Source: Candidatus Magasanikiibacteriota bacterium (lineage in GTDB: Bacteria; Patescibacteriota; Patescibacteriia; Magasanikbacterales; GWA2-37-8). Taken from it: a DNA stretch of 64,000 nucleotides. Positions 5,047-61,918 of this stretch are shown here, one piece after another. The translations under genes and the position numbers were made by a program. Every line of letters starts with the position of its first letter. The first letter of the stretch is position 1. The stretch covers positions 407 through 64,406 of the forward strand of contig JBAYIZ010000006.1 in the NCBI GenBank assembly GCA_041665405.1, given 5' to 3'. The notes under the pieces were generated by a model. That model saw only the letters and a program-made list of their open reading frames with translations. It was not told the DNA's origin and made no database searches.

Positions 5047-6873
5047 ATGCGTTTTTCCTCTGTTTTAGTGACAATTTTGCTCTGTTTGGCCATAACATCT
5101 CCAGTAGAAGCAAAAATTGCTCTACCTGTTACACCAACTGGTTTTACCTATCAAGCTGTACCTACAGGCACTCTTTTGAAGTGGAGCAACCAAAAGTCCT
5201 CGATTGGATATTCTTGTCTTGTTTACAGATCAACATCGCCAAAAACCAAAGGAACCATGATAAAAAAACTTTCCTGTAAGAATGGCAACATGCTTGATAT
5301 TAGCGCGAAAAAGAACAAAGTATATTATTATTCAATTCAGGTACAAAATCTAAAATCATTTTCAAAGCTAACCAAAGCGACGAAGTTTGTTCCTAAAAAA
5401 ATATCCACAACAATTTTAAAAAAGGAATTACCAACGCCTAGTGATGTAAAAATATCAGCAACTCCAATTCCAACTACTACTGTTTTAATAAAGACGGCTG
5501 ACATAATCACTCCTCAACCGACAATCAGTGGTGGTGGCGGAGGCGGTGGTGGCGGATCATCTCAACCGGTTGCTACTCCAGAACCAGTTGTGGTTTCGGC
5601 CCCAGTCTCAAAACAGATTCCGCAAACTAATACCACCGTTATATTGGAGGTACCTAGCTCTACAATTGAAACTATAATTCCTTCCTCCACAACATCTACC
5701 ATTGTTGAGACAACATCGACACCTCCAGCACCAATCGTAGATACATCCGAAAAAACAATTTGCTCTTCTGCAAGCCAGAGAGTCGTTTTAATTGTTGATC
5801 CAAATTTAAGCACACAAATTCAATCAAATCTAACACAATTCGAAACTGATTTGTGTAAAGAATATAGTGTAATAGAAAAAACAAAAAAATTTAATAGCCC
5901 TCAGGAGCTGCGTTCCTATTTGAAGGACATTTATGACAAATCTTCTCTTGTTGGAACTATCTTAATTGGTGATTTTCCTCGCGTCTATCAAAATGTTTCA
6001 TTAAGTTTAGATTCACCAGAAGAAGCGCTAAGTCTTCAATATTACGAAGATTTGGATGGAAATTTTAGTACTTCCACAAACTATCAATCTCCAGGAAACC
6101 GTACATATTCTTATGATATTCATGACGGTGATGTTGATTGGGAAATATGGGTTGGTGTTTTGCCGTATTATAATGGTGACATCGATGCGACAGCTGACGC
6201 AATTAATCGCTTCCTTGTAAAAAACCATAATTATCGAACAAACGGGTCTCTCATACCAAGAGCATATGCTGAAATCGACGAACTTTCAGGGGCGAACCCG
6301 AAGGATTTGGCAGAATATGAACAAGCAAGAACATATCTACGTTCTGGCCAATACTCTTGGTCTCCATTCAGTCTCGCTACCACATCCAAAATATATTTTA
6401 ACGGAGATGGTGTCCCTGAGGAATTTTCAATCAGTAACGCCTACAAAGATTTGTCACTAGGTGTGGCTGATTTCACCGAGGTAGGTGCTCATGGTTATTG
6501 GGGTGGGAGCGGAAAAACTGATATCAGCTGGATAAACAATAATCCTATCAAAACAATATTTTATTGGAATGATGCGTGCTCTGTTGGAAATTTAGATTAT
6601 CAAGAAAACTTTTTGTCTTCCGTATTATATAATCAAAACAGCGAGGTTTTGGTAGCCAGAGGTTCGACTAATAGTTCCGGTGGTATGGGTAGTAATACTA
6701 ATGGTTATTTTGGCCACAACATTGCTACATCATTAACAAACGGAGAAAGCATCGGTCAGGCTATAGTCAACCATGTGAATGTTCCTTTGGTATCTCCATA
6801 TAATAAATCAAGAGAATTCCACTTTGCCCTATCTATCATTCTAGGCGACCCAACACTAAAACTAAGACAATAA
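5047..6873 (+). CDS. secreted clan-CD (gingipain/clostripain-like) cysteine peptidase candidate with Gly- and Thr-rich linker
   Basis: Signal peptide MRFSSVLVTILLCLAITSPVEA starts at the internal ATG at 5047. Poly-Gly run GGGGGGGGGSS. Putative catalytic dyad H-G (EVGAHGYWGG) then A-C (YWNDACSVGN) with caspase-fold spacing. Confidence 0.5.
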   Translation: MRFSSVLVTILLCLAITSPVEAKIALPVTPTGFTYQAVPTGTLLKWSNQKSSIGYSCLVYRSTSPKTKGTMIKKLSCKNGNMLDISAKKNKVYYYSIQVQNLKSFSKLTKATKFVPKKISTTILKKELPTPSDVKISATPIPTTTVLIKTADIITPQPTISGGGGGGGGGSSQPVATPEPVVVSAPVSKQIPQTNTTVILEVPSSTIETIIPSSTTSTIVETTSTPPAPIVDTSEKTICSSASQRVVLIVDPNLSTQIQSNLTQFETDLCKEYSVIEKTKKFNSPQELRSYLKDIYDKSSLVGTILIGDFPRVYQNVSLSLDSPEEALSLQYYEDLDGNFSTSTNYQSPGNRTYSYDIHDGDVDWEIWVGVLPYYNGDIDATADAINRFLVKNHNYRTNGSLIPRAYAEIDELSGANPKDLAEYEQARTYLRSGQYSWSPFSLATTSKIYFNGDGVPEEFSISNAYKDLSLGVADFTEVGAHGYWGGSGKTDISWINNNPIKTIFYWNDACSVGNLDYQENFLSSVLYNQNSEVLVARGSTNSSGGMGSNTNGYFGHNIATSLTNGESIGQAIVNHVNVPLVSPYNKSREFHFALSIILGDPTLKLRQ

Positions 6874-10769: not shown

Positions 10770-11006
10770 ACTAATTATATTTAAGCCAATACTACGCTAT
10801 TTTGCACAAAAAATCAAGACAAACAAAAAACTTCCTATAAGAAGAAGTTTTTTCTATTCTCATGTCGTTAACAACAACAGGAAAATGGATGCCTGCTTTT
10901 TTGTACCGTGAGCGCAGGCGAATCTCACATATTTTCCTTGCGGCGACTAGCCACGCATTAATCACATGCGCAACTTATCAAGCCGAATTGTGTTGGTACG
11001 GCGCGA

Positions 11007-11420
11007 TCAGCGCGCCTTGGGGGCGGCTGCTTCTCGCAGTTCGGCCAGCTTCCTGTCTACCTTTGGGGTGCCGAGGTGTTGCTTGGCCGCGAACACGAGC
11101 TTTGCGCGGGCAGATTGCACCGCCCTGTTCGAAGGACGACGGCCGGGTGGAGTCAAAGCCACCACCGCCTGCAACATTGCCTCCGTCGTCTGCTCGTCAC
11201 CCTGCTTGTACTCCCTGAGCGTGAACAGGACCTTCTCCACCTTCTCGTGGAGATCCCAGGACTCGCGCCAATACGGCCTGTCTTCGCCGGAATGGAACTT
11301 GTCGAGCATGGAGTGAGCCCTCCTCGACCTGAAGTAGCAAAGGACCAACACAAGCATCGACACGATGTTCACCGCAACACTGATACTGTGCCACATAGAA
11401 ATCCCCACTTCCTTCACCAT
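11007..11420 (-). CDS. small GC-rich protein with N-terminal TM helix (137 aa from MVKEV), hypothetical; GC island 1
   Basis: About 60% GC versus about 35% background; high GC3. Start at the internal ATG at 11420. The other overlapping ORFs in this island look like GC artefacts (S/R-rich). Confidence 0.45.
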   Translation of the reverse strand: MVKEVGISMWHSISVAVNIVSMLVLVLCYFRSRRAHSMLDKFHSGEDRPYWRESWDLHEKVEKVLFTLREYKQGDEQTTEAMLQAVVALTPPGRRPSNRAVQSARAKLVFAAKQHLGTPKVDRKLAELREAAAPKAR

Positions 11421-11571
11421 TGCTGACGAAGATGTTAGCTCTCTAGTTGGCGCGGGATGACACATCCACGCCCTTGCGACAAGCAAGCGGCAGCCCAGCT
11501 ACCTCTACTTTTTCCTTACCAAAAGAAAAACTAGCCGTAGCTTGGCCAAAATATATTTCAAAGAACGTGTA

Positions 11572-11600
11572 AATATAGCACAAAACAACAATTTTGTCAA
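11572..11600 (-). promoter_or_regulatory. sigma70-like promoter TTGACA-17-(TGc)TATATT reading into GC island 1 gene
   Basis: Reverse complement reads TTGACAAAATTGTTGTTTTGTGCTATATT: consensus -35, 17-nt spacer, extended -10. Confidence 0.5.
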
Positions 11601-11678
11601 CAATACTGAAATAATGCACCGCAAACATCCAGCGGCTTTTGATTTTCTCTTACAGGCATGTTAAAATGAAAACTCAAT

Positions 11679-23159: not shown

Positions 23160-23175
23160 CTCCACAAACAAAAAC

Positions 23176-23215
23176 ATCCCGACTAAATCGAGATGTTTTA
23201 TTTTTAAAGCGTTTA
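23176..23215 (+). terminator. intrinsic terminator after the REC gene (imperfect 8-bp stem + TTTTATTTTT)
   Basis: CATCCCGA-CTAAA-TCGAGATG followed by a T-run. Confidence 0.45.
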
Positions 23216-23348
23216 TATCACTCGCACAATCTGAAAACAAATTTTATTTTCAAATTGCGCGGCGAGTGACATCTACCGCGTCTGCCCCACCGCCCGCTTG
23301 TAGCGAGTGGGGCTACGATGGCTAGTCTCTACAAATTAGCCCTTCCAT

Positions 23349-23822
23349 CTAGAAGGTGCCCGCCCCCAAGGCGAGTTGGACCTCCCATCCGAAGGAGTTC
23401 TTCTCCACGACGTCCTGTTGCCAGCCGACAGGGGCTTTCAGGAAAACGCGGGCACGCCACAGCTTCATACTGACCATCGGACCAGCCCCGTACAACAGCC
23501 CGTCGTTGCCCTTCTGTCCAGAAAGGACCCCGCCGAAGTTGAACGTGAGCCCATCAACGATCACGTCATAGGTGACGCCGTAGGCCATGCCGTAGCCCGA
23601 TACTTGGGTCGGAACCCAGAACTGGGCGAAGTGGGTCGTGTGACCATCCGGCTGGACCAAGTAGAGGCCCATGCCGATGTCGGTGCCGTCCTCAAACCCG
23701 GCGTGTTGCACGAACAGGCCGGCCCCACCAGTCTCCGGACCAGGACCCTCAGCCAGGGCGACTGAAGGAACTGCGAAAAGGACGACGCTCACGATGACGA
23801 AAAACCACGCGATGTGCTTCAT
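23349..23822 (-). CDS. GC-rich secreted beta-barrel outer-membrane-protein-like protein (OmpW/OMP_b-brl-like), GC island 2
   Basis: About 62% GC. Signal peptide MKHIAWFFVIVSVVLFAVPSVALA. Gly/aromatic-rich alternating strands and a C-terminal aromatic ...LALGAGTF. Start taken at the internal ATG at 23822, where the GC content begins. Confidence 0.5.
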   Translation of the reverse strand: MKHIAWFFVIVSVVLFAVPSVALAEGPGPETGGAGLFVQHAGFEDGTDIGMGLYLVQPDGHTTHFAQFWVPTQVSGYGMAYGVTYDVIVDGLTFNFGGVLSGQKGNDGLLYGAGPMVSMKLWRARVFLKAPVGWQQDVVEKNSFGWEVQLALGAGTF

Positions 23823-23994
23823 GGATTTACTCCGAAAACTAGAGTTCATCGGTACCCAGCCGACACACCACGCGACAATCATTGTCGAGAGGTAAGGGTG
23901 ATTATTTATTCCTATATACATTAGAAATACATAATTTCCTTTACCTCTTTGAGACATTATTTATCCATTATAATTTAAAAAGAACTAACTGAAC

Positions 23995-24023
23995 AGTATC
24001 ACACAAAACAATCAAATTGTCAA
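23995..24023 (-). promoter_or_regulatory. promoter TTGACA-17-(TGt)GATACT reading leftward toward the GC island 2 gene
   Basis: Reverse complement TTGACAATTTGATTGTTTTGTGTGATACT. The spacer shares TTGTTTTGTG with the island 1 promoter. Confidence 0.45.
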
Positions 24024-24032
24024 CATCTCTAT

Positions 24033-24061
24033 TGACAAACCCGCCTAAATATTATATTATC
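24033..24061 (+). promoter_or_regulatory. promoter TTGACA-17-TATTAT for the rpsL-rpsG-fusA operon
   Basis: Consensus -35 and near-consensus -10, 150 nt upstream of rpsL. Confidence 0.5.
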
Positions 24062-24207
24062 TACACAGAACTAGTCCTAAACCATCGTATGTATCTGATA
24101 CTTTGGCTAGGGGCGGACCAAAAGAATCGTGGCTGATTATATATGGTCAGTTTTTTTGTTATATTAAATCCGGCAAATCATCTAAGATTAGCCAAATTAA
24201 TTAAATT

Positions 24208-24636
24208 ATGCCTACAGTAAACCAATTGGTTAAAAAGGGTCGCATTAGCAAAGCCCGCAAGACCAAAGTACCGGCATTGCAATTTACCATTGATAACTTG
24301 CACCGCCGAAAAACCGTATTCGCCAAAGGCTGCGCCTTCAAAAGAGGTGTTTGCACTAAGGTATATACAACAACTCCTAAAAAACCTAACTCTGCTTTGC
24401 GTAAAGTCGCCAAAGTTCGTATGAGCAATGGATCAGAAGTTATCGCATATATCCCAGGTGAAGGTCACAATCTACAGGAACACTCTATCGTGCTTTTGCG
24501 CGGTGGTCGTGTAAAAGATCTTCCAGGTGTACGTTACCATATTGTTCGTGGTGTTTATGATGCTCAAGGTATCGAAAAACGCCGCCGCAGTCGCAGTATT
24601 TATGGTACAAAACGTCCAAAAGCAGCAAAGAAATAA
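24208..24636 (+). CDS. rpsL: 30S ribosomal protein S12
   Basis: [12 protein letters not shown]...[11 protein letters not shown]...HNLQEHS; highly conserved. Confidence 0.95.
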
Positions 24637-24669: not shown

Positions 24670-25146
24670 ATGAGAGGAAAGCAATCAAAACAACGAGTTA
24701 TTGCTCCGGATCCAAAATATGGAAGCGTATTGGTGGCTAAATTCACCAACTTCTTGATGGAACGAGGCAAGAAATCAGTGGCTCAAGATATTTTTTATTC
24801 TGCTATGGATAAAATCGCTACTGATACAAAGAAAGATCCAATCAAAATTTTTGAAGAGGCAATCAATGTCATCCGCCCACAGGTAGAGGTTCGTTCTCGC
24901 CGTGTTGGTGGTGCCAACTACCAAGTACCACTTCCAGTTCGTGGTGAACGTCAAAATGCTTTGGCTTTCCGCTGGATTATCGGTGCTGCTCGCAACAAAA
25001 AAGGCCAACCAATGTTCCAAAAGCTTGCAACTGTATTAATGGATGCTCAACAAAATACTGGTGATGCCGTAAAGAAACGCGATGACGTACATCGCATGGC
25101 CGAAGCCAACAAGGCTTTTGCGCATTTCGCACGCTTTGCTAAATAA
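24670..25146 (+). CDS. rpsG: 30S ribosomal protein S7
   Basis: C-terminus KKRDDVHRMAEANKAFAHF matches S7 closely. Confidence 0.95.
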   Translation: MRGKQSKQRVIAPDPKYGSVLVAKFTNFLMERGKKSVAQDIFYSAMDKIATDTKKDPIKIFEEAINVIRPQVEVRSRRVGGANYQVPLPVRGERQNALAFRWIIGAARNKKGQPMFQKLATVLMDAQQNTGDAVKKRDDVHRMAEANKAFAHFARFAK

Positions 25147-25266: not shown

Positions 25267-27342
25267 ATGCCTCGTGAATATTCACTAGACAAAACACGTA
25301 ACATTGGTATTGCAGCTCACATCGACGCTGGTAAAACAACCACCACAGAACGTGTGCTTTTTTATACCGGTAAAAAACACAAAATTGGTGAGGTGCACGA
25401 AGGTGCCGCTGAAATGGACTGGATGGAACAAGAAAAAGAACGTGGTATTACTATTACTTCTGCCGCCACTACTTGTTTCTGGAAAGATCACCGCATCAAC
25501 ATCATCGACACTCCTGGACACGTAGACTTTACCGTAGAAGTAGAGCGCTCTTTGCGCGTGCTTGACGGTGCTGTCGCTGTGTTTGATGGATCTCAAGGTG
25601 TAGAACCACAGTCTGAAACTGTGTGGCACCAAGCTGACAAATATAATGTACCTCGCGTTCCTTTTATTAATAAAATGGATAAGTTGGGTGCAGATTTTTA
25701 TATGTGCATGGACTCAATCCATGAGCGTTTATCAAAAAACGCCTACGCCATTCAGTTACCACTTGGCGCTGATAGTACTTTTGAAGGTTTGATTGATGTG
25801 ATCGAAAGCAAAGCTTACCATTTCGAAGGAAAAAATGGTGAAATTGTTGTTGAGATTCCAATTCCAGCCGACATGGTAGAAAAAGTAAAAGAATATCGCA
25901 CAAAGTTGGTAGAAAAAGTTTCAGAGGCTAGTGACGAATTGATGGAAAAGTATTTGAATGGTCAAGAACTATCTGTCGACGAAATCAAAAAAGCTATCCG
26001 CACTTTAACTTTGAAAAATTTATTGTACCCAGTTATCTGTGGTTCTGCTTTGGCAAACATCGGCGTCCAATTTATGTTGGATGCAGTTGTAAGTTATTTG
26101 CCAGCCCCAACAGATTTGCCTCCAACCAAAGGTATTAATCCTGACACTGATGCTGAAGAAGTTCGCAATCCATCTGATGACGAGCCTTTCTCCGCTTTGG
26201 CTTTCAAGATCATGACCGATCCTTTTGTTGGTAAGTTGGTTTTCTTCCGCGTATACTCAGGACATGTTTCTGCTGGCAGTTATTTGCACAACGCTACAAC
26301 TGGCGAACGCAGTCGTTTGGGTCGCATTGTTCGTATGCATGCCAATCACCGTGAAGATGTGACTGACGTTTACTCTGGTGAAATTGCAGCTGCCATCGGT
26401 CTCAAGGATGTCACTACTGGCGATACTCTTTGTGACGAAGAACATCCAATCGTCTTAGAAAAAATTATCTTCCCAGAACCAGTTATTTCTGTGGCTATCG
26501 AACCAAAAACAAAACAGGACCAAGAGCGTATTGGTATGGCTATGCAGAAATTGGCTGAAGAAGACCCAACCTTCCGCATCAAGACTGATGAAGAAACTTT
26601 GCAAACCATTATTTCCGGCATGGGCGAGTTGCATTTGGACATTATCGTGGATCGCATGAAACGCGAGTTCAAGGTAGAAGCCAATGTTGGTGCCCCTCAG
26701 GTTGCCTACAAAGAAACTATCCGCACTACTGCCGAAGCTGAAGGAAAATACATCAAACAGTCTGGTGGTAAGGGTCAATTTGGCCATTGTTATCTCACTG
26801 TTGAGCCCCAAGAAGCTGGCAAAGGATTCGAGTTTGTCGATGAAATCAAAGGCGGAACAATTCCTCGTGAATTTATCCCTGCCATTGAAAAAGGTGTTAA
26901 AGAATCCCTAACTCGCGGTATTCAAGCTGGTTACCCGGTAGTAGACATCAAAGTAACTGTTACTGATGGCTCATACCATGAGGTGGATTCCTCTGAAATG
27001 GCTTTCAAAATGGCCGGATCGATGGCTTTCCAGACAGCTTGTAAAAAGGCCAACCCGGTGATTATGGAGCCTATTATGAAAGTCGAGGTAGTTACCCCAG
27101 AACAATATATGGGTGACTGCATCGGCGACTTAAACAGTAAACGTGGCCAAATACAAGAAATGTTTGACCGTGGCCAGATGAAGGTTGTGAAGGCAATGGT
27201 GCCTCTTGCGTCCATGTTTGGCTATGTCACCTCTTTGCGCTCTATGTCACAAGGTCGCGCTAGTTCCTCTATGGAATTCGATCACTATGCAGATGTTCCA
27301 GGTAATGTGGCTCAAAACATTGTCGCTGGAAAACAGAAATAA
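25267..27342 (+). CDS. fusA: elongation factor G
   Basis: G1 [18 protein letters not shown]; 691 aa. Confidence 0.95.
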
Positions 27343-27365
27343 TACACAAATTCAACTAAACAATA

Positions 27366-27392
27366 CCCACTTTCTAGACGAGGTGGGTTTTT
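27366..27392 (+). terminator. intrinsic terminator after fusA (CCCACTTTCTAGACGAGGTGGG + TTTTT)
   Basis: 6-bp GC stem plus U-run, 24 nt after the fusA stop. Confidence 0.65.
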
Positions 27393-27419
27393 GTTTATCA
27401 AACAATGATAATTACTAAA

Positions 27420-27443
27420 TTTGTATACACTAGTCTATACAAA
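27420..27443. repeat. 24-bp near-palindrome TTTGTATACACTAGTCTATACAAA (left inverted repeat)
   Basis: The exact reverse complement recurs at 27544-27567. The two brackets enclose about 100 bp containing two hairpins. Confidence 0.7.
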
Positions 27444-27543
27444 AGTGGATAAGTGTGTGCACAACTCCACTCTTGTGTGTATAACTTTTAACTGTTCGCC
27501 TTCTTAGCCACCCTTTTCTTGGCTAACCACAAAAGAAACTCTG

Positions 27544-27567
27544 TTTGTATAGACTAGTGTATACAAA
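27544..27567. repeat. 24-bp near-palindrome TTTGTATAGACTAGTGTATACAAA (right inverted repeat, exact RC of 27420-27443)
   Basis: Perfect 24/24 match to the reverse complement of the left copy. Confidence 0.7.
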
Positions 27568-27570
27568 TGG

Positions 27571-27599
27571 TTGACAAAACTCCGTTTGTGTGCTATACT
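27571..27599 (+). promoter_or_regulatory. promoter TTGACA-17-(TGc)TATACT
   Basis: TTGACAAAACTCCGTTTGTGTGCTATACT: consensus -35, 17-nt spacer, extended -10, immediately after the right inverted repeat. Confidence 0.55.
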
Positions 27600-27606
27600 T
27601 AAATTG

Positions 27607-27935
27607 TAGTTCTTTACTACAATTTATATGTCCACTTATCAGTGGACCAAACCCATCGAACTGCTAAATAGAGAAGGGGATTCACAACTGCTGTACAAAT
27701 ATATTGAAGCGGTAGTGGCGAATCCAAACTTCTTGTCCGGTAACCTCAATCTTTGCGTCAATCTGACCTTTTGTGTCAGAATTACGCCTGAGGTATTACC
27801 TTCAAGCGGTCGGGGGTATCACTGTCTTGGTCTATGACAGCTCATCTATATGGTGACTGCTCTGATCATGTACAGCGCCTATAAGGGCAAGAGCCTTAAA
27901 ACTATGTTTATCGGGTTACTATGCCCTTATTTTTT
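27607..27935 (+). ncRNA. candidate transcript of unknown function (about 330 nt, promoter to terminator) in place of the expected tuf gene; may be ncRNA or carry a 69-aa ORF (27628..27837)
   Basis: Bounded by the consensus promoter at 27571-27599 and a hairpin + T7 terminator (about 27880-27935). Internal hairpins (AATTGTAG...CTACAATT, GTCCACT...AGTGGAC). GC is about 43%, above background. The ORF has no SD. Confidence 0.3.
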
Positions 27936-27950
27936 TATAAATATTTTTAC

Positions 27951-27978
27951 TTGACTACATCCGCTAATCTGTTATAAT
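27951..27978 (+). promoter_or_regulatory. promoter TTGACT-16-TATAAT upstream of the dksA/traR-like gene
   Basis: Consensus hexamers 27 nt upstream of ATG 28005. Confidence 0.5.
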
Positions 27979-28004
27979 TATCCCATTGAAAATAATTAAT
28001 ATAT

Positions 28005-28391
28005 ATGGCCAAAACGACTTTTAGCAAAGAATTTGTTACAAAAATAAAAACCTTACTACTAAAGGAAAAAGAGACCTTGGAAAAAGAACTAGGTAAATTT
28101 TCTCAAAAAAATAGTCGTGTAGCTGGAGATTATAATAGTAATTTCCCAGAATACGGTGACAAAGACGATGAGAATGCCGCTGAAGTTGCAGAATATGCCA
28201 CTGAACTTCCTTTAGAAGAAAGCTTTGAAAAAACTTTGCGCGATAACATCCAAGCCTTAACGCGCTTGGAAAATGATACTTACGGAATTTGCAAGTATTG
28301 CAAAAAACCAATCGATGAAAAACGATTGCTGGCTCGTCCAACTTCCAACGCTTGTATTACTTGTAAAAAAGCCATCACTCAAGAAATCTAA
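28005..28391 (+). CDS. DksA/TraR-family C4-type zinc-finger protein
   Basis: Coiled-coil N-terminus plus C-terminal CKYCKKPIDEKRLLARPTSNACITCKK (CxxC-x17-CxxC). Confidence 0.75.
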   Translation: MAKTTFSKEFVTKIKTLLLKEKETLEKELGKFSQKNSRVAGDYNSNFPEYGDKDDENAAEVAEYATELPLEESFEKTLRDNIQALTRLENDTYGICKYCKKPIDEKRLLARPTSNACITCKKAITQEI

Positions 28392-28392
28392 T

Positions 28393-28839
28393 ATGCAAAC
28401 AAAAGCCCGTCAGTTAATTATTTTTATTGGCGGCTTTTTTTTATTTTGTTTTGACCAAATATTAAAGTATTTTTCTTTACATACTCTCTCTGATGGTCAT
28501 GTGTTCTTCAACTTTTTTGGTTGGGGACCTTTTCAAAACCACGGGGTGGCTTTTAGTTTGCCGCTACCAAATACCCTTACTATAATATTCACTGCACCTA
28601 TAATTATAATTTTGTTGTGGTTTTTGATTAAATATTATTTTATTCCATCAAAACTAAATTTTTTTACAGGTCTGACATTAATTTTTTGGGGGGCTTTATC
28701 AAACCTAATCGACCGTGTTGTTTATCATGCGACCATTGATTATTTTGTGTTTGGAAGAGGGGTTATTAATTTGGCTGACATTCTAATCATTTTGGGTTTC
28801 CTTTTTTATTTATTACCATATAAATTTTTTAAACAATAA
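28393..28839 (+). CDS. lspA: lipoprotein signal peptidase (signal peptidase II)
   Basis: Four TM helices; motifs GALSNLIDRVVY and INLADILIILG. The start was moved to ATG 28393 immediately after the dksA stop. Confidence 0.8.
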   Translation: MQTKARQLIIFIGGFFLFCFDQILKYFSLHTLSDGHVFFNFFGWGPFQNHGVAFSLPLPNTLTIIFTAPIIIILLWFLIKYYFIPSKLNFFTGLTLIFWGALSNLIDRVVYHATIDYFVFGRGVINLADILIILGFLFYLLPYKFFKQ

Positions 28840-35047: not shown

Positions 35048-36172
35048 TTATTGTCTTATCGGCATCACTATATAAACAAAACTGTCGTCGTTGGTTGGTA
35101 CAAAGAGACACGGGCTGTCTGCGTTTATCATTTTCAGCATACTGGTTTCTGATTTAATATTATTTAAACCATCCAAAACATATCGGTGGTTCAACATAAT
35201 AGCATTGTCGTCGCCGTTTGTTTCCGCACTTATTTCAGAACTATATTCACCCGTCTGGGAAGAAGTGGAGGAAAGTTTTACGACGCCTTCTTTACTACTA
35301 ATTATACAAGATATAGCGTTTACACCTATTGTGGTAAACAAACTGGCCATTTTAATTTCTTTACTCATCTTTCCAGTATCAAACATCGCAGATGTTTTGA
35401 ATTCTTTTGGTATAATTTGTGCATAGTCTGGATAATTTCCTTCTACTAAGCGAGAAACTAGTTGAATATTACCGTAGTGCATAGCAATTTGATTCTCTCC
35501 AACTAATATTCTAACGTTTTTTTCTTTTTCTTCATTATCCGCTAACGACAGTATGTGGATTATTTCTTGAGCAGTTCTACCCGGAACAATAATTTTAAAA
35601 TCTCCTTCTCCTTGTTGAATTTTAATTTTCTTTTCAGCCAATCTATAACTATCTGTAGCCGCCAATATTAAACCGGCATAATATGAAGTATTAAATCCAA
35701 AATACATTCCTGATAATTCCGGTCTTATTTCTGATTTAGCCAAAGAGGAAACAGTTTGTCCTAGTCCGCTCTTTAGTTGTTCTGCATCAAACAAAAATCC
35801 ATTTCCATCACTTACAGAAGGAATAACTGGAAATTCGTCAGCTGGTATTCCTTTTATTTTCGTTGATGATTTTCCACAGGTTATAACTAGCTCATTTTCT
35901 TTTAATTCCATTTCAATCTTTTCGTCAGAAAGTAAACTAACAAATTCACTAAGTGTTTTGGAAGGAACTGTAAACGAACCAGATTCATCCACTTTTGATC
36001 TCACGTGAGCAACTATTGCCAATTCTAGATTGGTTGCAATTATTTCTGTTTTTTGATCATCTGCTTTAATCAATATATTTCCCAGTATTGGAAGATTCAC
36101 ATTTTTATTTGCTATCCCTCCTACTATAGAAAGTGCTTTCGATAAATTATCTTTTGTACAAGTTATTTTCAT
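35048..36172 (-). CDS. dnaN: DNA polymerase III beta sliding clamp
   Basis: Three-domain clamp, 374 aa, immediately downstream of dnaA. Confidence 0.9.
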   Translation of the reverse strand: MKITCTKDNLSKALSIVGGIANKNVNLPILGNILIKADDQKTEIIATNLELAIVAHVRSKVDESGSFTVPSKTLSEFVSLLSDEKIEMELKENELVITCGKSSTKIKGIPADEFPVIPSVSDGNGFLFDAEQLKSGLGQTVSSLAKSEIRPELSGMYFGFNTSYYAGLILAATDSYRLAEKKIKIQQGEGDFKIIVPGRTAQEIIHILSLADNEEKEKNVRILVGENQIAMHYGNIQLVSRLVEGNYPDYAQIIPKEFKTSAMFDTGKMSKEIKMASLFTTIGVNAISCIISSKEGVVKLSSTSSQTGEYSSEISAETNGDDNAIMLNHRYVLDGLNNIKSETSMLKMINADSPCLFVPTNDDSFVYIVMPIRQ

Positions 36173-36447
36173 AAAGGATGGTGCGGGTTACATTATTTAA
36201 TTAAGTATATATATAAAATAATAATAGTAATAAGGCTGTGGAAAGGGTTAATAAGTCGTTTTTTGTTTTCAAATTAGCCAAGTTTAAGGTGAATAATTTT
36301 TTAACAGTTTGGTATAAAAGTGTGTGTGAAAAACGATTTATTTAAGTTTATTTATTTTCTGTTGATAAGTGGTTGACTTGTTCTTTTTATATTAACAACT
36401 TATTAACATTCTTTGCACACCATTTAGCGAAGAAAAAAAACCATGTT
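36173..36447. other. dnaA-dnaN intergenic region, probable oriC segment with AT-rich unwinding element
   Basis: Very AT-rich tract TATATATATAAAATAATAATAGTAATAA plus a DnaA-box-like TGTTGATAA. Confidence 0.4.
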
Positions 36448-37842: not shown

Positions 37843-38017
37843 AGATTGATAGTTTTATAAAACTTTTATGTTATTTTAGCACAGAAACACATCTATTAAA
37901 ACGTCGGAAATTAGCTAAAAGTGCAAAATATGTGGATAAACTGGGGATACTGTGGATTGTTGACTAAAAGCCGTTTATATGGTAATATATTCAACATAAT
38001 ACATTAAATAAAAAGGT
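37843..38017. promoter_or_regulatory. dnaA upstream region with DnaA boxes (TGTGGATAA at 37931-37939; TGTGGATTG at 37951-37959) and a divergent rpmH promoter TTGACT-17-TAATAT
   Basis: A perfect TTATCCACA (on the opposite strand) plus a 1-mismatch box; classic oriC/dnaA promoter arrangement. Confidence 0.5.
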
Positions 38018-55485: not shown

Positions 55486-56220
55486 ATGGAAAATTTGAAT
55501 ATTCTAAAAGAACTCGGTTTAGACGACCAAGAAGCGAGTGTATATATGGCTTTATTAAAATTGGGTGGATCTCAAGCCAGTGTTGTAGCCAAAGATGTTG
55601 GCATTAAACGGACAACAGTTTACCCTGTTTTGCAGGCGTTGGCGGCCAAAGGGATGGTAAATGTTTATTTTCGAAAAAACCGCCATTTCTATTATGCTCA
55701 AAAACCAAATAGAGTGGTGGGTATTTTCAAAAAGAAAATAGAATCATTTGAAAGTATTATTCCAATGTTGGAACTAGTTGAAAAAAAACAAGTGATGGCC
55801 ACGGGTTTGCGCTTTATTGAAACAGTTGAAGAATTAAAACAATTTTATAACGGAATTTTAGATGAGTATAAAGGGAAGCAATATCTGGCAATTGGAAATA
55901 CGGCGGCATGGGAGGGATTGGAACCAGAATTTTTTGTAAACTTTCGTAGACAAAGAGCAGAAAATAAAATTAAAACGAAATTACTATTAACATTTAATTC
56001 TGTCGAAATAAATCCAATAGAAACCTCGCTATTAAGAGAGTGGAAATATCTTCCTGAAAAATATAAATTTCAAAGTACGATAGATATTTTTAATGATAAA
56101 ATTTTGATTGTGAGTCCGGAGCTAAGTTCGTTGGCGGTGGTGATCGCGGTGCCGGCGATGACGGATATTTTTAAATCTGTTTTTGAGATGTTGTGGCAGA
56201 TGTTGCCGGAGGTGAAATAA
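55486..56220 (+). CDS. TrmB-like winged-helix transcriptional regulator (short paralog, 244 aa)
   Basis: N-terminal LKELGLDDQEASVYMALLKLGGSQASVVAKDVGIKRTTVYPVLQALAAKGMV matches the TrmB wHTH. Divergent from the aminotransferase operon. Confidence 0.7.
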   Translation: MENLNILKELGLDDQEASVYMALLKLGGSQASVVAKDVGIKRTTVYPVLQALAAKGMVNVYFRKNRHFYYAQKPNRVVGIFKKKIESFESIIPMLELVEKKQVMATGLRFIETVEELKQFYNGILDEYKGKQYLAIGNTAAWEGLEPEFFVNFRRQRAENKIKTKLLLTFNSVEINPIETSLLREWKYLPEKYKFQSTIDIFNDKILIVSPELSSLAVVIAVPAMTDIFKSVFEMLWQMLPEVK

Positions 56221-56226
56221 TTAAAA

Positions 56227-56260
56227 CAAAAAACCGATTGCAATATGCAGTCGGTTTTTT
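56227..56260 (+). terminator. conserved intrinsic terminator AAAAAACCGATTGCAATATGCAGTCGGTTTTTTT (family shared by TrmB paralogs)
   Basis: 8-bp stem with a G-U pair plus T-run. Near-identical copies at 61128-61162 and 63041-63076. Confidence 0.65.
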
Positions 56261-56269
56261 TAGTTTATT

Positions 56270-57910
56270 TTACTCAATAAAAAGATTTTCCGTAGAATAA
56301 TTATTTTTTATTAATTTATCATTTATTAAAACTTTTATAATTTCATCAACCACTGAATTAAAATCATCTGGAATTGTATCAAAGAATTCTATCTTTTTTA
56401 ATGATTCGGTTAATTCGCGCTCAGGTATCCCAACATGAGATGAGGCAATATTTATTACCTCTTTTTCTTGTTTTTTCCATATCGCGACGGATTGATTCCA
56501 CACCTTCTTAATTTTTTCAATCTCTTTGGTTTTTTGTTGTAGTAATTTATTGTTTACAATCAATACATCATATAGGATAGGATAATCGTTTGTGGTTTTT
56601 AAAATATTTATATTTGAAAGTTCAAGCGCTTTTTCAAGCCATGGCTCCCAAATAATTCCAGCTTCAATATTACCCGCGATAATTCCAGCTCCAATTTCAG
56701 AGCATTGCATATCTTTAATTTTTACATCTTTAGAGGTCATCCCTTCTTTTTGGAGAATATATGAGAGAAAAAATTCCGCCACCGATCCTTTTTCGAGTCC
56801 TATGGTTTTACCTTTTAATTCAATTACGGATTTTATATTTGACTGTGCAACTAACGCATCGCCACCGACGGAGCGATTCAATACCTTTACTATTCTAAGA
56901 TCTGTTATTTTTGAGTGTAATTCGATGGCTTTATCTAGGGTAACATTTATTGCGTCTAGCTTTCCTTGCTCCCACAGCTCAACTTTTTTCTTGTTATCTT
57001 CAAAATTGATTTGTTCCACATCAAGCGACTCGTCGATAAACAGACCGCTATCTTTTGCATAGTAAAGGGGGGTGTTTCCAGACCAAATATATAATCCCAT
57101 TTTGAAAACATCAGTATCAGTAACAATCCCTTCTTCCAAGCTCGCCTTGATTGATTCTGAACGAATAATGTAACTGATGAACTTTTTTAGTTTTATAAAA
57201 TCTTCATGGAATCTGATTTCAGGTTTTCGTGGTCGTTTGATATTTACTTTTACTACCTGTTTGACAGTTCCTGGATTTAGTCCTAAGACAATAATTCTAT
57301 CCGCTAAGTATATTGCTTCATCAATGTCATGGGTGACTAAAATCATTGTTTTTTGTTCTTCTTCCCATAGTCTTGCTAAAAATTCTTGCATTTGAGATCT
57401 CGTTTGTACATCAAGAGCGCCAAAAGGTTCGTCAAATGCAATTAGGTCAGTCTGTTGTGCTATTGCTCTGGCAATAGCGATTCTTTGTTGCATGCCTCCT
57501 GAAAGCTTGTTGGGGAAATAATCTTTGACCTTGTAAAGGCCAACTCGTTTAAGTAATTTGTTAGTTTCAGTACGTACTTCAGTCTCAGACATATTTTTAC
57601 CGTAAAATCCAATGGCAATATTTTCGAAAACATTCAACCAAGGAAAATTAGAGTATTGCTGAGAAACTAATGCAATTCTATTATTTTCTAAATATTTGGA
57701 GCTGTCTAAACCATTGATTTTTATATTTCCTTCGAATACAGTGTCCAAACCTGTTACGCATTTTAAAATAGTGCTTTTACCTGAGCCGCTTGGGCCAACT
57801 ATACACACTATCTCCCCCTTTTTTATATCAAAAGAGATATCATTTATTGCGATAAAAGATTTATTTTCGCGATCATAATAATGTTTAGTTAGTTTGTGGA
57901 CTTCAATCAT
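56270..57910 (-). CDS. ABC transporter ATPase (NitT/TauT family) fused to a C-terminal NMT1/THI5-like domain
   Basis: Walker A GPSGSGKST, signature LSGGMQQR, Walker B IAFDEP. An extra 300-aa C-terminal periplasmic-binding-like domain. Start set to ATG 57910, 5 nt after the permease stop. Confidence 0.8.
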   Translation of the reverse strand: MIEVHKLTKHYYDRENKSFIAINDISFDIKKGEIVCIVGPSGSGKSTILKCVTGLDTVFEGNIKINGLDSSKYLENNRIALVSQQYSNFPWLNVFENIAIGFYGKNMSETEVRTETNKLLKRVGLYKVKDYFPNKLSGGMQQRIAIARAIAQQTDLIAFDEPFGALDVQTRSQMQEFLARLWEEEQKTMILVTHDIDEAIYLADRIIVLGLNPGTVKQVVKVNIKRPRKPEIRFHEDFIKLKKFISYIIRSESIKASLEEGIVTDTDVFKMGLYIWSGNTPLYYAKDSGLFIDESLDVEQINFEDNKKKVELWEQGKLDAINVTLDKAIELHSKITDLRIVKVLNRSVGGDALVAQSNIKSVIELKGKTIGLEKGSVAEFFLSYILQKEGMTSKDVKIKDMQCSEIGAGIIAGNIEAGIIWEPWLEKALELSNINILKTTNDYPILYDVLIVNNKLLQQKTKEIEKIKKVWNQSVAIWKKQEKEVINIASSHVGIPERELTESLKKIEFFDTIPDDFNSVVDEIIKVLINDKLIKNNYSTENLFIE

Positions 57911-57914
57911 AATT

Positions 57915-58664
57915 TTAAATTTTGTATTTGAAGATGTGTGGGTATAGTTTTTTGAAAATATAATCTGAGAAAAAACCAATTATTCCAATGACAACGATTC
58001 CGACATATAAATCCGGTATATTAGAAAACCTTTGTGCTTCCTTGATCATGTGACCAATACCAGAATTTGCGGCAACCAACTCTGCAATTACGAGATAAGT
58101 CCAACACCACCCCAATGTTATTCGGGAATTATTAAATAATTGCGGAGCGATACTCGATAGTTTTATCTTTAGCACTTTATATTTACTAAAATTTAAGGTA
58201 TGAGATAAATCTAGATATTCTTTAGGAACATTATTTAAATCATCTATTACTAATAAGATAAGTTGAAAAAAAGTGCCAATGAATAAAAGTGATATTTTAG
58301 CACCTTCTCCTATACCAAAAAATAAAATTGTTAATGGGATTAAGGCTGGCACGGGTAAATATCTAATAAAGTCTATATATGGCGAAAGTAAATCGTGTAG
58401 TTTTTTCCACGAACTCATCAATAGCGCGAGCGAAAGAGCAATAACAAAAGCTAACAAGAACGCTACTAAAACTCGAAAAATAGAAATACCAATATCTAAC
58501 ACAAAGGATTTTTCTAAAAACAATTTTTGTGTCGCTGTTAAAAAATCCTGTATTGTCGGAAAGAATATGGGGTTTATAAGTTTAATCCATGAACCCAAAA
58601 TCCACAGTGATAATAAAATCACTATGGAAATTGGGAAGATATAATTTCCTCTAAACAGTTTCAT
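57915..58664 (-). CDS. ABC transporter permease (BPD inner-membrane component)
   Basis: Six TM helices, EAA-like loop; 249 aa. Confidence 0.8.
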   Translation of the reverse strand: MKLFRGNYIFPISIVILLSLWILGSWIKLINPIFFPTIQDFLTATQKLFLEKSFVLDIGISIFRVLVAFLLAFVIALSLALLMSSWKKLHDLLSPYIDFIRYLPVPALIPLTILFFGIGEGAKISLLFIGTFFQLILLVIDDLNNVPKEYLDLSHTLNFSKYKVLKIKLSSIAPQLFNNSRITLGWCWTYLVIAELVAANSGIGHMIKEAQRFSNIPDLYVGIVVIGIIGFFSDYIFKKLYPHIFKYKI

Positions 58665-58676
58665 GGAGATATTAAT

Positions 58677-59678
58677 TTACTTATAACTTGTAATTGTCTT
58701 GTCTGATAATTTATCGCTTGATTTTACCCTTACTCCTGCCGAGTTGTTGCTTTCTAAAATATTACCCACAAGATCAAAAGTTAAATAAGCATTGTTGACT
58801 TGTTTCTTGTCAAACAATTTTTGATTATCTTCTAGCGTCAGCCAACTAACTCCTGATTTGATATCATTCATTTCAGCCTTATCTACACCAAAGGCGTCAG
58901 CCATAATTTGCATTGATTCATCTGGATTCTTTTGCCAATAATCGACAGCTGAAAACCAACCATCCGAAATCTTTTTAAGAACTTCTTGGTCGTTTTTAAC
59001 TAAATTTTCTGAGGCAAATAATAAATCGACAATTAAACCTGGTGTATCTGCACTTGAAACCAATATCTTTGCTCCGGCTCTTTTATCTGCGCTAATAGAT
59101 AAATAAGGTTCATAAGTAGCAGCAACATCTACCTGGCTCGCAACAAATGCATTTCCTGCGTCTGCTGAAGGAAGGTCTTTGAAGCTTACATCTGCCAAGC
59201 TTAATCCTTCTTTATTTAACAAATATTGTAAGATGAAATAAGGAGGAAAACCAGGTTCAGCGGCGACTGTTTTACCTTTTAAGTCTTTCAGTTCTGAAAT
59301 GTTACTAGAAACAACCACGCCATCGCCACCATGTGATTCGTCTATAGCAAGGAATCCAACCCCTGGAGGTTCATTACCTTCTACAGCTTGAAAAATATCA
59401 TACGTTGCAGCGTACATGTCGATCTGTCCGCTGTTCATAGCGGCCCTAAGATCACCGATTGATTCAATTCGAACCAAATTTACATCTACATCATTAAAAA
59501 AATTTTTTTCTTTTGCTAAGTATAGCGGTGCATATCCAGGAAATGTAACCATCCCGATAGTAACTGATTTTTTAGATTGTAGATTTTTTGTGTCATTCTT
59601 GTTACTTTGTGTAAAAACAATTACTAACACAACCACGACGAATAGGGCAACGATTGTCCTGATGATTTTCTTATTCAT
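58677..59678 (-). CDS. ABC transporter substrate-binding protein, NMT1/THI5/SsuA-like
   Basis: Signal/TM anchor MNKKIIRTIVALFVVVVLVIVF followed by a type II PBP fold (GYAPLYLAKEKNFF). Confidence 0.75.
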   Translation of the reverse strand: MNKKIIRTIVALFVVVVLVIVFTQSNKNDTKNLQSKKSVTIGMVTFPGYAPLYLAKEKNFFNDVDVNLVRIESIGDLRAAMNSGQIDMYAATYDIFQAVEGNEPPGVGFLAIDESHGGDGVVVSSNISELKDLKGKTVAAEPGFPPYFILQYLLNKEGLSLADVSFKDLPSADAGNAFVASQVDVAATYEPYLSISADKRAGAKILVSSADTPGLIVDLLFASENLVKNDQEVLKKISDGWFSAVDYWQKNPDESMQIMADAFGVDKAEMNDIKSGVSWLTLEDNQKLFDKKQVNNAYLTFDLVGNILESNNSAGVRVKSSDKLSDKTITSYK

Positions 59679-59789
59679 ACTTTTTATGTTAATTAAGGAA
59701 TTATTTGATTATGTGTTTATTGTAGCATTTTTTTTGGCAGTTGAAAAACAGCGGTAGACGTTAACATTGTTAACAGAACATAATATCAC

Positions 59790-59930
59790 AAAACTAAGGT
59801 TTTGTCAATGGTGTCACTTGACTTATGGTGACACTTATGATATGATAGTATTGCCTCTGTAAAGAGCAAAAACAACACAGTGTGTCACTGGTATGGTGAC
59901 AAATGTGACAAAAACCATGTTATTCTATAA
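59790..59930. promoter_or_regulatory. divergent control region with operator-like inverted repeats GTGTCAC-N10-GTGACAC and GTGTCAC-N7-GTGACA-N3-GTGACA
   Basis: The palindromes lie between the minus-strand ABC operon and the plus-strand TrmB-like gene at 59949. Confidence 0.4.
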
Positions 59931-59948
59931 TTTTTATCCACACCATTT

Positions 59949-61118: not shown

Positions 61119-61127
61119 AATTTAAAA

Positions 61128-61162
61128 ACAAAAAACCGATTGCAGATTGCAGTCGGTTTTTT
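61128..61162 (+). terminator. conserved TrmB-paralog terminator AAAAAACCGATTGCAGATTGCAGTCGGTTTTTT
   Basis: Same family as 56227 and 63041. Confidence 0.65.
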
Positions 61163-61308
61163 GATAACTTCTTGAGCTCAACAAGATGTTGGAGTGAATG
61201 AGCGGTCACTACCAGCCGCGTGACTTTTTGTTTTACCGGTAGTCACAAACCGGATGATCCCAGACCCCTCATCAGCGGACCATTGAATTGTCCTGAAACT
61301 TTGCACCT

Positions 61309-61707
61309 CTACGCCTGTTCGCGACAGGGCAGGCATTCGTAGCCCACCCAAAGGCCGTTGGCAAAGGTGAAGTCGAAGTCCCAGCGGTTGTCACCACCGT
61401 ACCAGCAGAGGCTGGCAGTGTATTTGAATCCATTGGGGGCGAGAAGAGTGGTGCCAGTGAGCACGATCTTCTTCTTACGCATTTTCATCGGAATCTGGTC
61501 TTGGTGGTCAAGCAGTTGCTGGCCGTCACGCACTCCAAGGACGCCATTCCGACGACGTGCGCGTTCGCGCAATTCGGAGCCCTTGATGCATTCCTCGCCA
61601 CGCTTGAGGCACGACTCGATCCGGAGCTTGTTGATGTGAAGATCTGCAATTGGATCACAGTCTTCCACAACCTTAAACTCCACCCTGTTCCAAACGAATG
61701 TATTCAC
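61309..61707 (-). CDS. GC-rich Cys-rich small protein (132 aa, GTG start), hypothetical; GC island 5
   Basis: SD AAGGAGGTGA-4-GTG. About 58% GC. Contains CxxC-like pairs (ESCLKRGEEC, ECLPCRE). Divergent from the TrmB paralog at 61919. Confidence 0.45.
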   Translation of the reverse strand: MNTFVWNRVEFKVVEDCDPIADLHINKLRIESCLKRGEECIKGSELRERARRRNGVLGVRDGQQLLDHQDQIPMKMRKKKIVLTGTTLLAPNGFKYTASLCWYGGDNRWDFDFTFANGLWVGYECLPCREQA

Positions 61708-61918
61708 CTTTCACCTCCTTGCGGTTCTGACAGGTTGGTTGCTCTGAAGAGAGCAATTGTTGTTAACAACTCAATAAAATATCATATTTCACTTTATTGG
61801 TCAATCATTTTATCCCTAAAATTAGCAAAAAAATCAGATAAAAGCTGACAAAATTATGTTGGGGGTTGACTTTTTGGCTAAATTCATATAAAATAATCAT
61901 CATAAATAATATGACAAT

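Follow-up and report, generated by a model that had tools for sequence, protein, structure and literature searches.

Predicted structured RNA gene preceded by DnaA boxes and palindromic sites upstream of dksA in Candidatus Magasanikiibacteriota

The DNA under study is a 64,000-bp stretch of contig JBAYIZ010000006.1 (GenBank assembly GCA_041665405.1) from a Candidatus Magasanikiibacteriota bacterium, referred to here as the window. The rpsL-rpsG-fusA operon in this window is separated by a 660-bp spacer from a gene, denoted dksA, for a zinc-finger protein of the DksA/TraR family. The spacer comprises three conserved parts: module M, in which a pair of 24-bp palindromes (P1 and P2) brackets three phased DnaA boxes; an RNA promoter; and an RNA gene (Table 1). 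Comparison with related loci indicates that the RNA gene is conserved, structured and non-coding with its own predicted promoter and terminator. The comparison likewise points to a conserved upstream module of phased predicted DnaA boxes bracketed by palindromes whose spacing is helically quantized, and which is located near to, but not at, the putative replication origin (oriC). An original prediction that was made from the sequence of the window without database searches had viewed the spacer as a novel non-coding RNA (ncRNA), a small-protein cassette, or the remnant of displacement of tuf by a mobile insertion.

Predicted RNA gene between fusA and dksA

Relatives of the locus were collected by alignment of DksA-like homologues, hundreds of which are named from Candidatus Magasanikbacteria and Patescibacteria, and 80 related loci were thereby obtained from species-representative genomes. 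When the whole spacer was used in nhmmer searches, the repeat-flanked element and the unit downstream of it both were conserved upstream of dksA in most loci. An RNA designated type 1 was recovered at 54 of the 80 loci by profile search and at 55 with the covariance model R1 that is described below, always on the dksA strand (+). A type 2 RNA of ~400-480 nt fills the same slot in 15 more distant loci (L027 at 5359-5755, L042, L030, L068, L062, L032, L053, L073, L031, L018, L056, L052, L057, L039 and L066). The type 2 RNA has a TTGACA...TGTGCTATA(A/C)T promoter and a 3' hairpin like those of type 1, and is characterized by a conserved A-rich loop (AAAACAAAAACAAAAG), by the motif GGUGGUAGAAAGG and by the long-range helix UUUCGAGCU/AGCUCGAAA. 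Locus L052 was matched both by R1 (E about 1e-7 with the core elements aligned) and by the type 2 search. Thus, the two types are considered as one family that is present at ~70 of the 80 loci. When metagenomes were scanned with a pattern specific for the core, 22 contigs were retrieved of which 19 were confirmed by R1; all 19 have palindromes upstream of the RNA, as well as dksA downstream where the contig reaches that far.

The consensus extended -10 promoter that the original prediction had located was borne out by inspection of the window, and its form, TTGACAAAA...TGTGCTATA(A/C)T, is kept in close and distant relatives. The promoter-to-terminator unit of ~330 nt had been estimated to have a GC content of ~43% which agrees well with the measured values of 42% for the unit and 45% for its core compared to 38.4% for the window. 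The terminator also was as described, consisting of a hairpin (27883-27928) and a T7 tract (27930-27936). Its stem covaries (GC, CG, AU) and its loop, UUAAAA(U/C)UAU.UUUAU, is conserved. The minimum free energy of the RNA is -118 kcal/mol, with a z-score of -8.76 on the plus strand versus -5.29 on the minus strand.

The core of the RNA was represented by model R1 which spans 176 positions and 48 pairs. The helix that closes the three-way junction, CCC..ACUGC/GCGGU..GGG, includes the nearly invariant strands ACUGC/GCGGU in which a U-G pair does not vary; covariation from G-C to A-U is evident in this helix. The long hairpin of the core, AGAAG-GGAUUCAC...GUGGCGAAUCC-ACUUCUU, is closed by AGAAG/CUUCU, and the remaining helix, GGUAACCUC...GAGGUAUUACC (GGUAAC-CUC/GAG-N3-UACC), is arranged around a variable hairpin. 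Compensatory changes were evident in 25 of the 45 predicted pairs in a first alignment of 20 sequences. With 56 aligned sequences, standard pairs occupied 85.7% of cells versus 37-45% when the partners were slid, and 40 of the 48 pairs had changed on both sides; these measures were not reached in any of 500 shuffles. The closing helix of the variable 3' domain also covaries (UA with CG, and GC with AU), and the inner loops in this domain are GNRA or UUCG in different species. The two ends of the RNA are not paired with each other, as the 5' end carries hairpins and the 3' end is the terminator hairpin, and another domain of 120 nt lies beyond the long-range helix. A mutual-information search for pseudoknots in the full-length MAFFT alignment, which is too loose for this purpose, revealed nothing convincing. 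Overall, the unit has the attributes of a free-standing ncRNA, with a conserved promoter and intrinsic terminator of its own and a structure that is supported by compensatory changes.

The unit contains the 69-amino-acid open reading frame (ORF; 27628-27837) that had been noted to lack a Shine-Dalgarno sequence, and no such sequence was found upstream. Stops or frameshifts interrupt this frame in 19 of 19 aligned relatives, the start codon is not conserved (TATG, ATTG, TCTG or AACG), and the predicted product has no Pfam match. A coding gene was rejected on these grounds, and the small-protein cassette fails with it. Scans of the window against Rfam 15 at gathering and at permissive thresholds gave no credible match for the unit, and a permissive scan of the RNA alone (E up to 10) yielded just one chance match of 16.6 bits. 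A permissive scan of a type 2 homologue found nothing credible. Thus, the RNA was not identified as a known Rfam family, and the view that it bears no signature of RNase P RNA, transfer-messenger RNA (tmRNA), signal recognition particle (SRP) RNA or 6S RNA is upheld by cmscan for the RNA in the window and for one type 2 RNA. ARAGORN also did not detect a tmRNA. No description of the RNA was found in the literature on ncRNAs, DnaA boxes, 6S RNA or RNase P in the candidate phyla radiation (CPR), Patescibacteria and Magasanikbacteria. Judged from its sequence the RNA is a new family of 330-480 nt that is supported by covariation and conserved across a class-level lineage, which accords with the first of the three original proposals: it is conserved, bounded by promoter and terminator, and without an Rfam family.

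The module and RNA are situated upstream of dksA-lspA-comM in ~70 of the 80 related genomes, and the order dksA-lspA-comM-(hypothetical)-pbp is conserved downstream. By contrast, fusA is the upstream neighbor only in ~11 close relatives, with the upstream neighbor varying elsewhere. Most loci have a sigma-70-type promoter, TTGAC-N16/17-TATAAT, that separates the RNA terminator from dksA. In L034, the RNA promoter is kept and 5.5 kb of unrelated genes are interposed between the RNA and dksA. The separate dksA promoter and the interposed genes in L034 both argue that the RNA is its own transcription unit.

A tiny extra unit was observed between the RNA and dksA, ~60-150 nt upstream of the latter, at ten loci (L043, L082, L081, L049, L054, L040, L026, L028, L070 and L075). 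It consists of a promoter-like TTGACA...TA..T sequence and a conserved hairpin, AACAGTC-N4-8-GACTGCTTTnTTTTTT, and might specify a very short RNA or act as an attenuator.

Module of palindromes and DnaA boxes and its chromosomal setting

Two exact reverse-complement repeats that bracket 100 bp had been recognized in the spacer. The arms (27419-27443 and 27544-27568) were confirmed to be exact, and are 25 nt long, 100% complementary and 100 nt apart. Each arm is itself a 12+12 near-palindrome and, as a result, the two copies are direct and inverted repeats alike. The 24-bp palindrome has the form TTTGTATA-N8-TATACAAA with the consensus TTTGTATA[C/G]ACTAGT[C/G]TATACAAA across loci, as determined from alignments and a census of all loci. 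The box is present in 69 of the 80 related loci, and the GT.TA-N8-TA.AC positions are invariant over 146 boxes. Among 66 box pairs, the inverted match was better in 19 cases and the direct match in 28, with 19 ties; a perfect inverted repeat is formed by six pairs and a perfect direct repeat by nine. Two palindromic sites can be configured in several equivalent ways, and the perfect inverted repeat of the window is one of these. The start-to-start distances between P1 and P2 fall into classes of 101-104, 112-114, 122-126, 133-138 and 145-148 bp, and the gaps between these classes are empty. Steps of ~11 bp are expected either if one helical face has to accommodate the proteins at both sites or if units of box size have been gained and lost. 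In view of their conserved sequence, the lack of selection for mutual pairing and the ~11-bp steps, the palindromes look like protein-binding sites rather than the ends of a miniature inverted-repeat transposable element (MITE).

Additional palindromes were noted in certain relatives. An extra 24-bp copy directly follows the fusA terminator in L006 (4919-5418), L015 (431-965) and L041 (389-412). In the first two of these loci this copy is succeeded by a GC-rich insert of ~470 nt ahead of the regular module, and the insert includes a small basic minus-strand ORF of 75 and 85 amino acids, respectively, with 27% mutual identity. Thus, insertions that adjoin these boxes do occur. Palindromes also are found away from the RNA locus in L078 (~1400-1545), L067 (~150-235), L073 (1516) and L066 (1170). 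The second sites in L078 and L067 again are flanked by several DnaA boxes, and the second copy in L073 is positioned between two tRNA-Ala genes. Helix-turn-helix proteins of the TrmB family are plentiful on the source contig, with at least seven paralogues in the stretch that comprises window positions 55486-63031 and the extension L083 (contig 56-77 kb). These paralogues are putative candidates for binding of the palindromes. The same TrmB-rich stretch includes a DUF3800 gene with a DUF3800-II RNA.

The three predicted DnaA boxes possess one orientation and start 0, 12 and 32 bp after the first palindrome. In relatives, TGTGGATAA, which is the reverse complement of the DnaA-box consensus TTATCCACA, is located at offset 0 or 1 after the upstream palindrome. 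A DnaA box with no more than one mismatch is found at offset -1 to +1 after 58 of the 146 palindromes, mostly after the upstream member of a pair. The density of DnaA boxes is 10 per kb in the module versus 0.39 per kb elsewhere in the 29 loci with a locatable RNA promoter, and loci L062 and L068 have seven boxes in both orientations. Two hairpins had been proposed between the repeat arms. The first corresponds to the DnaA-box array and its pairing is not conserved in relatives. The second is the TTAGCCA-N9-TGGCTAA inverted motif; in relatives a GGCTAA/TTAGCC motif is kept just upstream of the second palindrome, often as TTGGCTAAT..ATTAGCCAA.

The octamer TTGGCTAA/TTAGCCAA occurs 14 times in the window compared to 3.95 expected occurrences, a number that was reached in 0 of 100 shuffles. 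The sites include 24188, 27519, 30958, 36274, 61874, 63865 and 63930. One copy precedes the rpsL start codon by 13 nt, and others are found within the module and the dnaN-dnaA spacer. The octamer may be another regulatory site.

The dnaN, dnaA and rnpA genes are sited 8-10 kb downstream of the module. Apart from five small exceptions, the genes from 879 to 36172 have a negative plus-strand GC skew at third codon positions (GC3 skew), and most of those that start with dnaA (36448) and lie beyond it have a positive one. The sign changes at 36.2-36.4 kb, and the cumulative GC-skew minimum is at 35-37 kb. The densest cluster of DnaA boxes is in the dnaA-dnaN spacer in relatives whose locus includes dnaA. 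Taken together, these patterns suggest that oriC most likely is the dnaN-dnaA spacer (36173-36447), 9 kb from the module, and that the module is a predicted second, origin-proximal DnaA-box cluster. A position for oriC at the module was disfavored by the distance to the skew switch and by the greater richness of the dnaA-dnaN spacer in DnaA boxes. The spacer inside the module is 36% GC overall in the window and AT-rich in some relatives, with no obvious 13-mer or DnaA-trio array. The module lies within 10 kb of dnaA and dnaN wherever these genes fall in the fetched DNA; it abuts rnpA in L018 and is ~0.6 kb past dnaN in L039. The module thereby has properties of DnaA-box clusters of the datA, DARS and DBC type or of DnaA-regulated promoters, with three helically phased boxes, flanking palindromes, and a position away from the skew switch which is at a distance of 9 kb.

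Nine bases are common to the RNA terminator loop (UUAAAACUAU, 27897-27905) and the stretch upstream of the dnaA start (UAUAAAACUAUCAAUCU-AUG, reverse complement of 37843-37862), in the same sense as compared by eye. This likeness could be chance or a shared protein-binding motif.

Upstream of the module, the order rpsL-rpsG-fusA of the canonical str operon (rpsL-rpsG-fusA-tuf) is retained, and the end of fusA at 27342 is followed by a terminator-like hairpin (27365-27388) and a T run. The operon differs from the canonical arrangement in that tuf does not follow fusA in the window or in related loci. Searches by tblastn with E. coli EF-Tu did not find an EF-Tu gene in the 64-kb window or at the 80 related loci. 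The gene also was not found in the extension L083, which reaches position 77,450 of the source contig (97.6 kb). Precomputed Pfam matches of the called genes in both extensions included no elongation-factor domain. Accordingly, the original observations of the gene order, the terminator and the lack of tuf directly after fusA were correct, but its suggestion to locate tuf elsewhere met with no success in the window, the extensions or the related loci; on the source contig, the 23 kb that precede fusA and the 50 kb that follow it yielded no tuf. In L010 the str operon is inverted and tuf likewise is missing after fusA, which indicates a lineage trait and not a local scar. As tuf is sited elsewhere in several bacterial lineages, for example with secE-nusG, its absence here is unremarkable. 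The str operon that ends at fusA simply is the ordinary operon organization of the lineage and is unrelated to the RNA, and the spacer is not debris of a lost tuf gene.

Table 1. Features of the fusA-dksA spacer and of neighboring genes, with positions in the window
Feature	Position	Strand	Remarks
Module M	27420-27567		Two 24-bp palindromes bracketing three phased DnaA boxes
Palindromic box P1 (TTTGTATACACTAGTCTATACAAA)	27420-27443	.	Self-palindrome 12+12, 92%
Predicted DnaA box 1 (AGTGGATAA, reverse complement of TTATCCACT; most relatives TGTGGATAA)	27444-27452	-	Abuts P1
DnaA-box-like 9-mer 2 (TGTGCACAA)	27456-27464	-	12 bp after box 1; +12/13 conserved across loci
Predicted DnaA box 3 (TGTGTATAA, reverse complement of TTATACACA)	27476-27484	-	32 bp after box 1; +32/33 conserved
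TTAGCCA-N9-TGGCTAA inverted motif	27504-27526	.	Second hairpin of the original prediction
Palindromic box P2 (TTTGTATAGACTAGTGTATACAAA)	27544-27567	.	P1-P2 start-to-start spacing 124 bp
RNA-gene promoter TTGACA, 17-nt spacer, TGcTATACT	27571-27599	+	11/12 positions, extended -10
Structured non-coding RNA gene (predicted), ~330 nt	27606-27936	+	Start deduced from -10 position
RNA core domain, three-way junction	27648-27820	+	Covariance model R1
Variable 3' domain	27822-27880	+	CUGU/ACAG closing helix and inner tetraloop hairpin
Conserved terminator hairpin AAGGGCA...UGCCCUU	27883-27936	+	AU-rich apical loop, then U7
Separate promoter of dksA-like operon, TTGACT, 16-nt spacer, TGtTATAAT	27951-27978	+	11/12 positions
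DksA/TraR-family zinc-finger gene	28005-28391	+	Pfam PF01258; then lspA, comM
rpsL	24208-24636		Pfam-confirmed
rpsG	24670-25146		Pfam-confirmed
fusA	25267-27342		Pfam-confirmed
Putative intrinsic terminator of rpsL-rpsG-fusA operon	27365-27393	+	9-bp stem, 6-nt loop, T run
dnaN	35048-36172	-
dnaA	36448-37842	-

Interpretation of the RNA and the module

The interpretation that is favored as reasonably probable is that the locus specifies a new family of stable ncRNA whose transcription probably is controlled by DnaA and a palindrome-binding factor. A dimeric DNA-binding protein would bind the palindromes and, together with DnaA, would assemble into a phased nucleoprotein complex, possibly with a loop, by which the output of the RNA promoter is determined. 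The RNA would be transcribed from this strong sigma-70-type extended -10 promoter and would end at the conserved structured intrinsic terminator, with its level following DnaA and the replication status close to oriC. The RNA may be a stable, trans-acting RNA with a housekeeping or regulatory role, and most likely would provide the scaffold for an RNA-protein complex. Several observations weigh against this interpretation. Among relatives, the second palindrome is separated from the -35 element by ~3 to ~100 bp, and L034, in which the RNA promoter is kept, has no palindromes in the 120 nt available upstream. Thus, the module may not be a simple operator of the RNA promoter. Moreover, the transcription start and 3' end of the RNA were deduced from sequence, the covariation controls removed the phylogenetic signal only in part, and no candidate for the palindrome-binding protein is evident among the neighboring genes in Pfam. 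Pairing of the RNA with the dksA translation start also gave no signal, with z-scores around 0 for 16 loci.

The main rival to this interpretation views the module as a chromosome-replication element, either part of an origin or a DnaA-titrating or -recharging locus like datA, DARS or the B. subtilis clusters, to which the RNA gene is a mere neighbor or which is served by transcription of that gene. This rival is unlikely on balance. In its favor, the module lies within 10 kb of dnaA and dnaN wherever these were fetched and abuts them in L018 and L039, seven boxes in both orientations are found in L062 and L068, the distance between palindrome and promoter is variable, palindromes with DnaA boxes recur at other sites without the RNA, and the TTGGCTAA motif is common to the module and the dnaN-dnaA spacer. 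It is opposed by the GC3 skew which switches at the dnaN-dnaA junction 9 kb off and not at 27.4 kb, by the larger number of boxes in the dnaA-dnaN spacer of relatives, and by the base composition of the module spacer which is not notably AT-rich in the window. Furthermore, module and RNA are found together in all 19 metagenome contigs and in nearly all genomes. A doubtful extension of the favored interpretation is that RNA and module form one replication-coupled device specific to this CPR lineage in which DnaA and a palindrome-binding partner gate the synthesis of a large structured RNA that acts on the transcription or replication machinery, for example an RNA that binds RNA polymerase or DnaA and works with the DksA-like factor, or a ribozyme. 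If true, this would add a new class of functional RNA, one that is linked with the cell cycle of ultra-small bacteria.

Two further alternatives concern the RNA itself. The location of the RNA upstream of dksA in nearly all loci, its complex three-way junction with conserved junction nucleotides, and its end in a terminator are properties that also would fit a cis-acting leader, either riboswitch-like or an attenuator, that controls dksA-lspA-comM by regulated termination. In many sequences, an alternative pairing (CUCGCC/GGCGAG) that overlaps the terminator stem is possible; it is missing in the L023 and L043 groups, as judged by eye in one alignment, and a terminator/antiterminator switch based on this pairing was dropped because it is not universal. 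A leader function is improbable, given the conserved near-consensus promoter between the terminator and dksA, the other genes or 1-5 kb of DNA between RNA and dksA in L034, L101 and L105, and the lack of any Rfam riboswitch match. The RNA instead might be an extremely diverged universal RNA (RNase P RNA, 6S RNA, tmRNA or SRP RNA) that is missed by Rfam models in the CPR. The size of 330-480 nt, the strong promoter and the class-wide conservation would befit a housekeeping RNA, and rnpA is nearby and directly upstream of the module in L018. Magasanikbacteria belong to the class ABY1. RNase P RNAs of the CPR are diverged to the extent that 10 of 35 closed genomes lack a match at default thresholds, although all 35, including five of class ABY1, gave a match to RF00010 at lowered thresholds (PMC8172020). 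In view of this divergence, the RNA was compared by eye with the RNase P motifs GAGGAAAGUCC and ACAGAA..GGCUUA and the P1/P4 architecture. No match to this architecture and no counterpart of these motifs was seen in the RNA sequence or the alignments, a window-wide search for GAGGAAAGTCC with up to two mismatches gave no match within 27606-27936, and no RNase P signature was found in the window. Together with the unpaired 5' and 3' ends and the absence of RNase P, 6S, tmRNA and SRP matches from cmscan (E up to 10) and of tmRNA from ARAGORN, these results make a diverged universal RNA very improbable.

The proposal that tuf was displaced by a MITE-like insertion with inverted repeats of 24 bp at its ends, or that the spacer is a cassette for the 69-amino-acid ORF, is scarcely credible. 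The perfect 25-nt inverted repeat in the window and the extra palindrome beside the GC-rich ~470-nt insert with a small ORF in L006 and L015 are compatible with such an element. Yet most of the 80 related genomes, as well as the 19 metagenome contigs, have the element at the orthologous site, the arms are conserved in sequence and are not selected for mutual complementarity, and conserved DnaA boxes are contained within. The element travels with dksA and not with fusA. The flanks, ...TTACTAAA and GGTTGAC..., display no direct repeat that would denote a target-site duplication. The two 24-mers are the only copies in the window, where the chance expectation is 0, such that the further copies sought after the original prediction do not exist there, and viral contigs contain none. 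A MITE was rejected as there are no arms conserved for complementarity alone, no target-site duplication, and no dispersed copies or presence/absence polymorphism. In addition, the 69-amino-acid ORF is disrupted in all relatives and tuf is missing after fusA in other gene arrangements. Thus, the mobile-element and cassette proposals are refuted for practical purposes by the comparative data.

The favored interpretation, in which DnaA and a palindrome-binding factor would control a new ncRNA, can be set against known systems. Orphan large structured bacterial ncRNAs include OLE, the raiA motif and the GOLLD and ROOL classes that are described in the motif literature of Breaker and Weinberg. The RNA described here resembles these in its length of several hundred nucleotides, its multi-helix fold with conserved junction nucleotides and strong covariation, its own promoter and terminator, its restriction to one lineage, and a function that is not deducible from sequence. 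It differs in that all of those RNAs are in Rfam and none is matched by this RNA, that the host belongs to the CPR, and that the RNA is constantly associated with the DnaA-box/palindrome module and dksA. RNAs of such size and conservation usually have proved to be ribozymes or the cores of RNA-protein machines. The RNAs that bind RNA polymerase, 6S and mycobacterial Ms1, are abundant and stable with strong promoters, and Ms1 is ~300 nt in length. The strong predicted promoter and the neighboring gene for a DksA-family factor, which binds RNA polymerase, are points of likeness, and the neighbor makes a transcription-related role of the RNA conceivable. In contrast to 6S and Ms1, the RNA has no rod-like hairpin with a central bubble, its ends are unpaired, and no Rfam 6S match was obtained. 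A link of the RNA with RNA polymerase from gene order is only a guess.

DnaA-box clusters outside oriC and DnaA-regulated promoters are represented by datA and DARS1/2 of E. coli, the DnaA-box clusters of B. subtilis, and the dnaA, nrdAB and sda promoters. Module M is similar to these in possessing at least three boxes with phasing of approximately one helical turn, flanking sites for a second protein, proximity to oriC and a position beside a promoter. However, the accessory site in the module is a 24-bp palindrome without a known binder instead of sites for integration host factor (IHF) or Fis. The accessory sites also form a bracketing pair with quantized spacing, and the adjoining gene is predicted to specify a structured RNA.

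The CPR, or Patescibacteria, comprises a large share of bacterial diversity with tiny genomes and very few known regulators or ncRNAs. The RNA promoter is among the best in the region, and the family and its covariance model are offered for annotation and testing. As a new composite, the DnaA-box/palindrome module provides a handle for finding a partner protein of DnaA, as well as on the control of replication and transcription in organisms that are not culturable alone. For annotators, the missing tuf and the perfect inverted repeats at this locus do not signify mobile-element damage.

Other features of the region

With oriC placed between dnaN and dnaA, a 22-kb plus-strand block at 11.7-34 kb (genes 11679-33946) is transcribed head-on to replication. 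The block includes pilin-like genes, genes for a histidine kinase and response regulator, rpsL-rpsG-fusA, and the genes from dksA to pbp. The head-on orientation is unusual for ribosomal-protein genes.

The lspA gene that follows dksA was represented by a mechanical ORF (28273-28839) that overlaps dksA by 119 nt. The start in gene calls on identical contigs is the equivalent of 28393 and specifies a protein of 148 amino acids.

Two other long intervals were noted in the window. An intergenic region of 900 bp with ~45% GC (10770-11678) separates tgt (-) from a gene for a UvrD-like helicase (+), where gene orientation diverges. This region contains overlapping spurious ORFs on both strands and produced no Rfam match even at a permissive threshold. 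A second interval of ~1 kb with 44-45% GC (23160-24207) is located between the response-regulator gene and rpsL, and includes a minus-strand ORF of 202 amino acids (23349-23957) that has no Pfam match. The corresponding interval is only ~165 nt in L003 and ~600 nt in L006.

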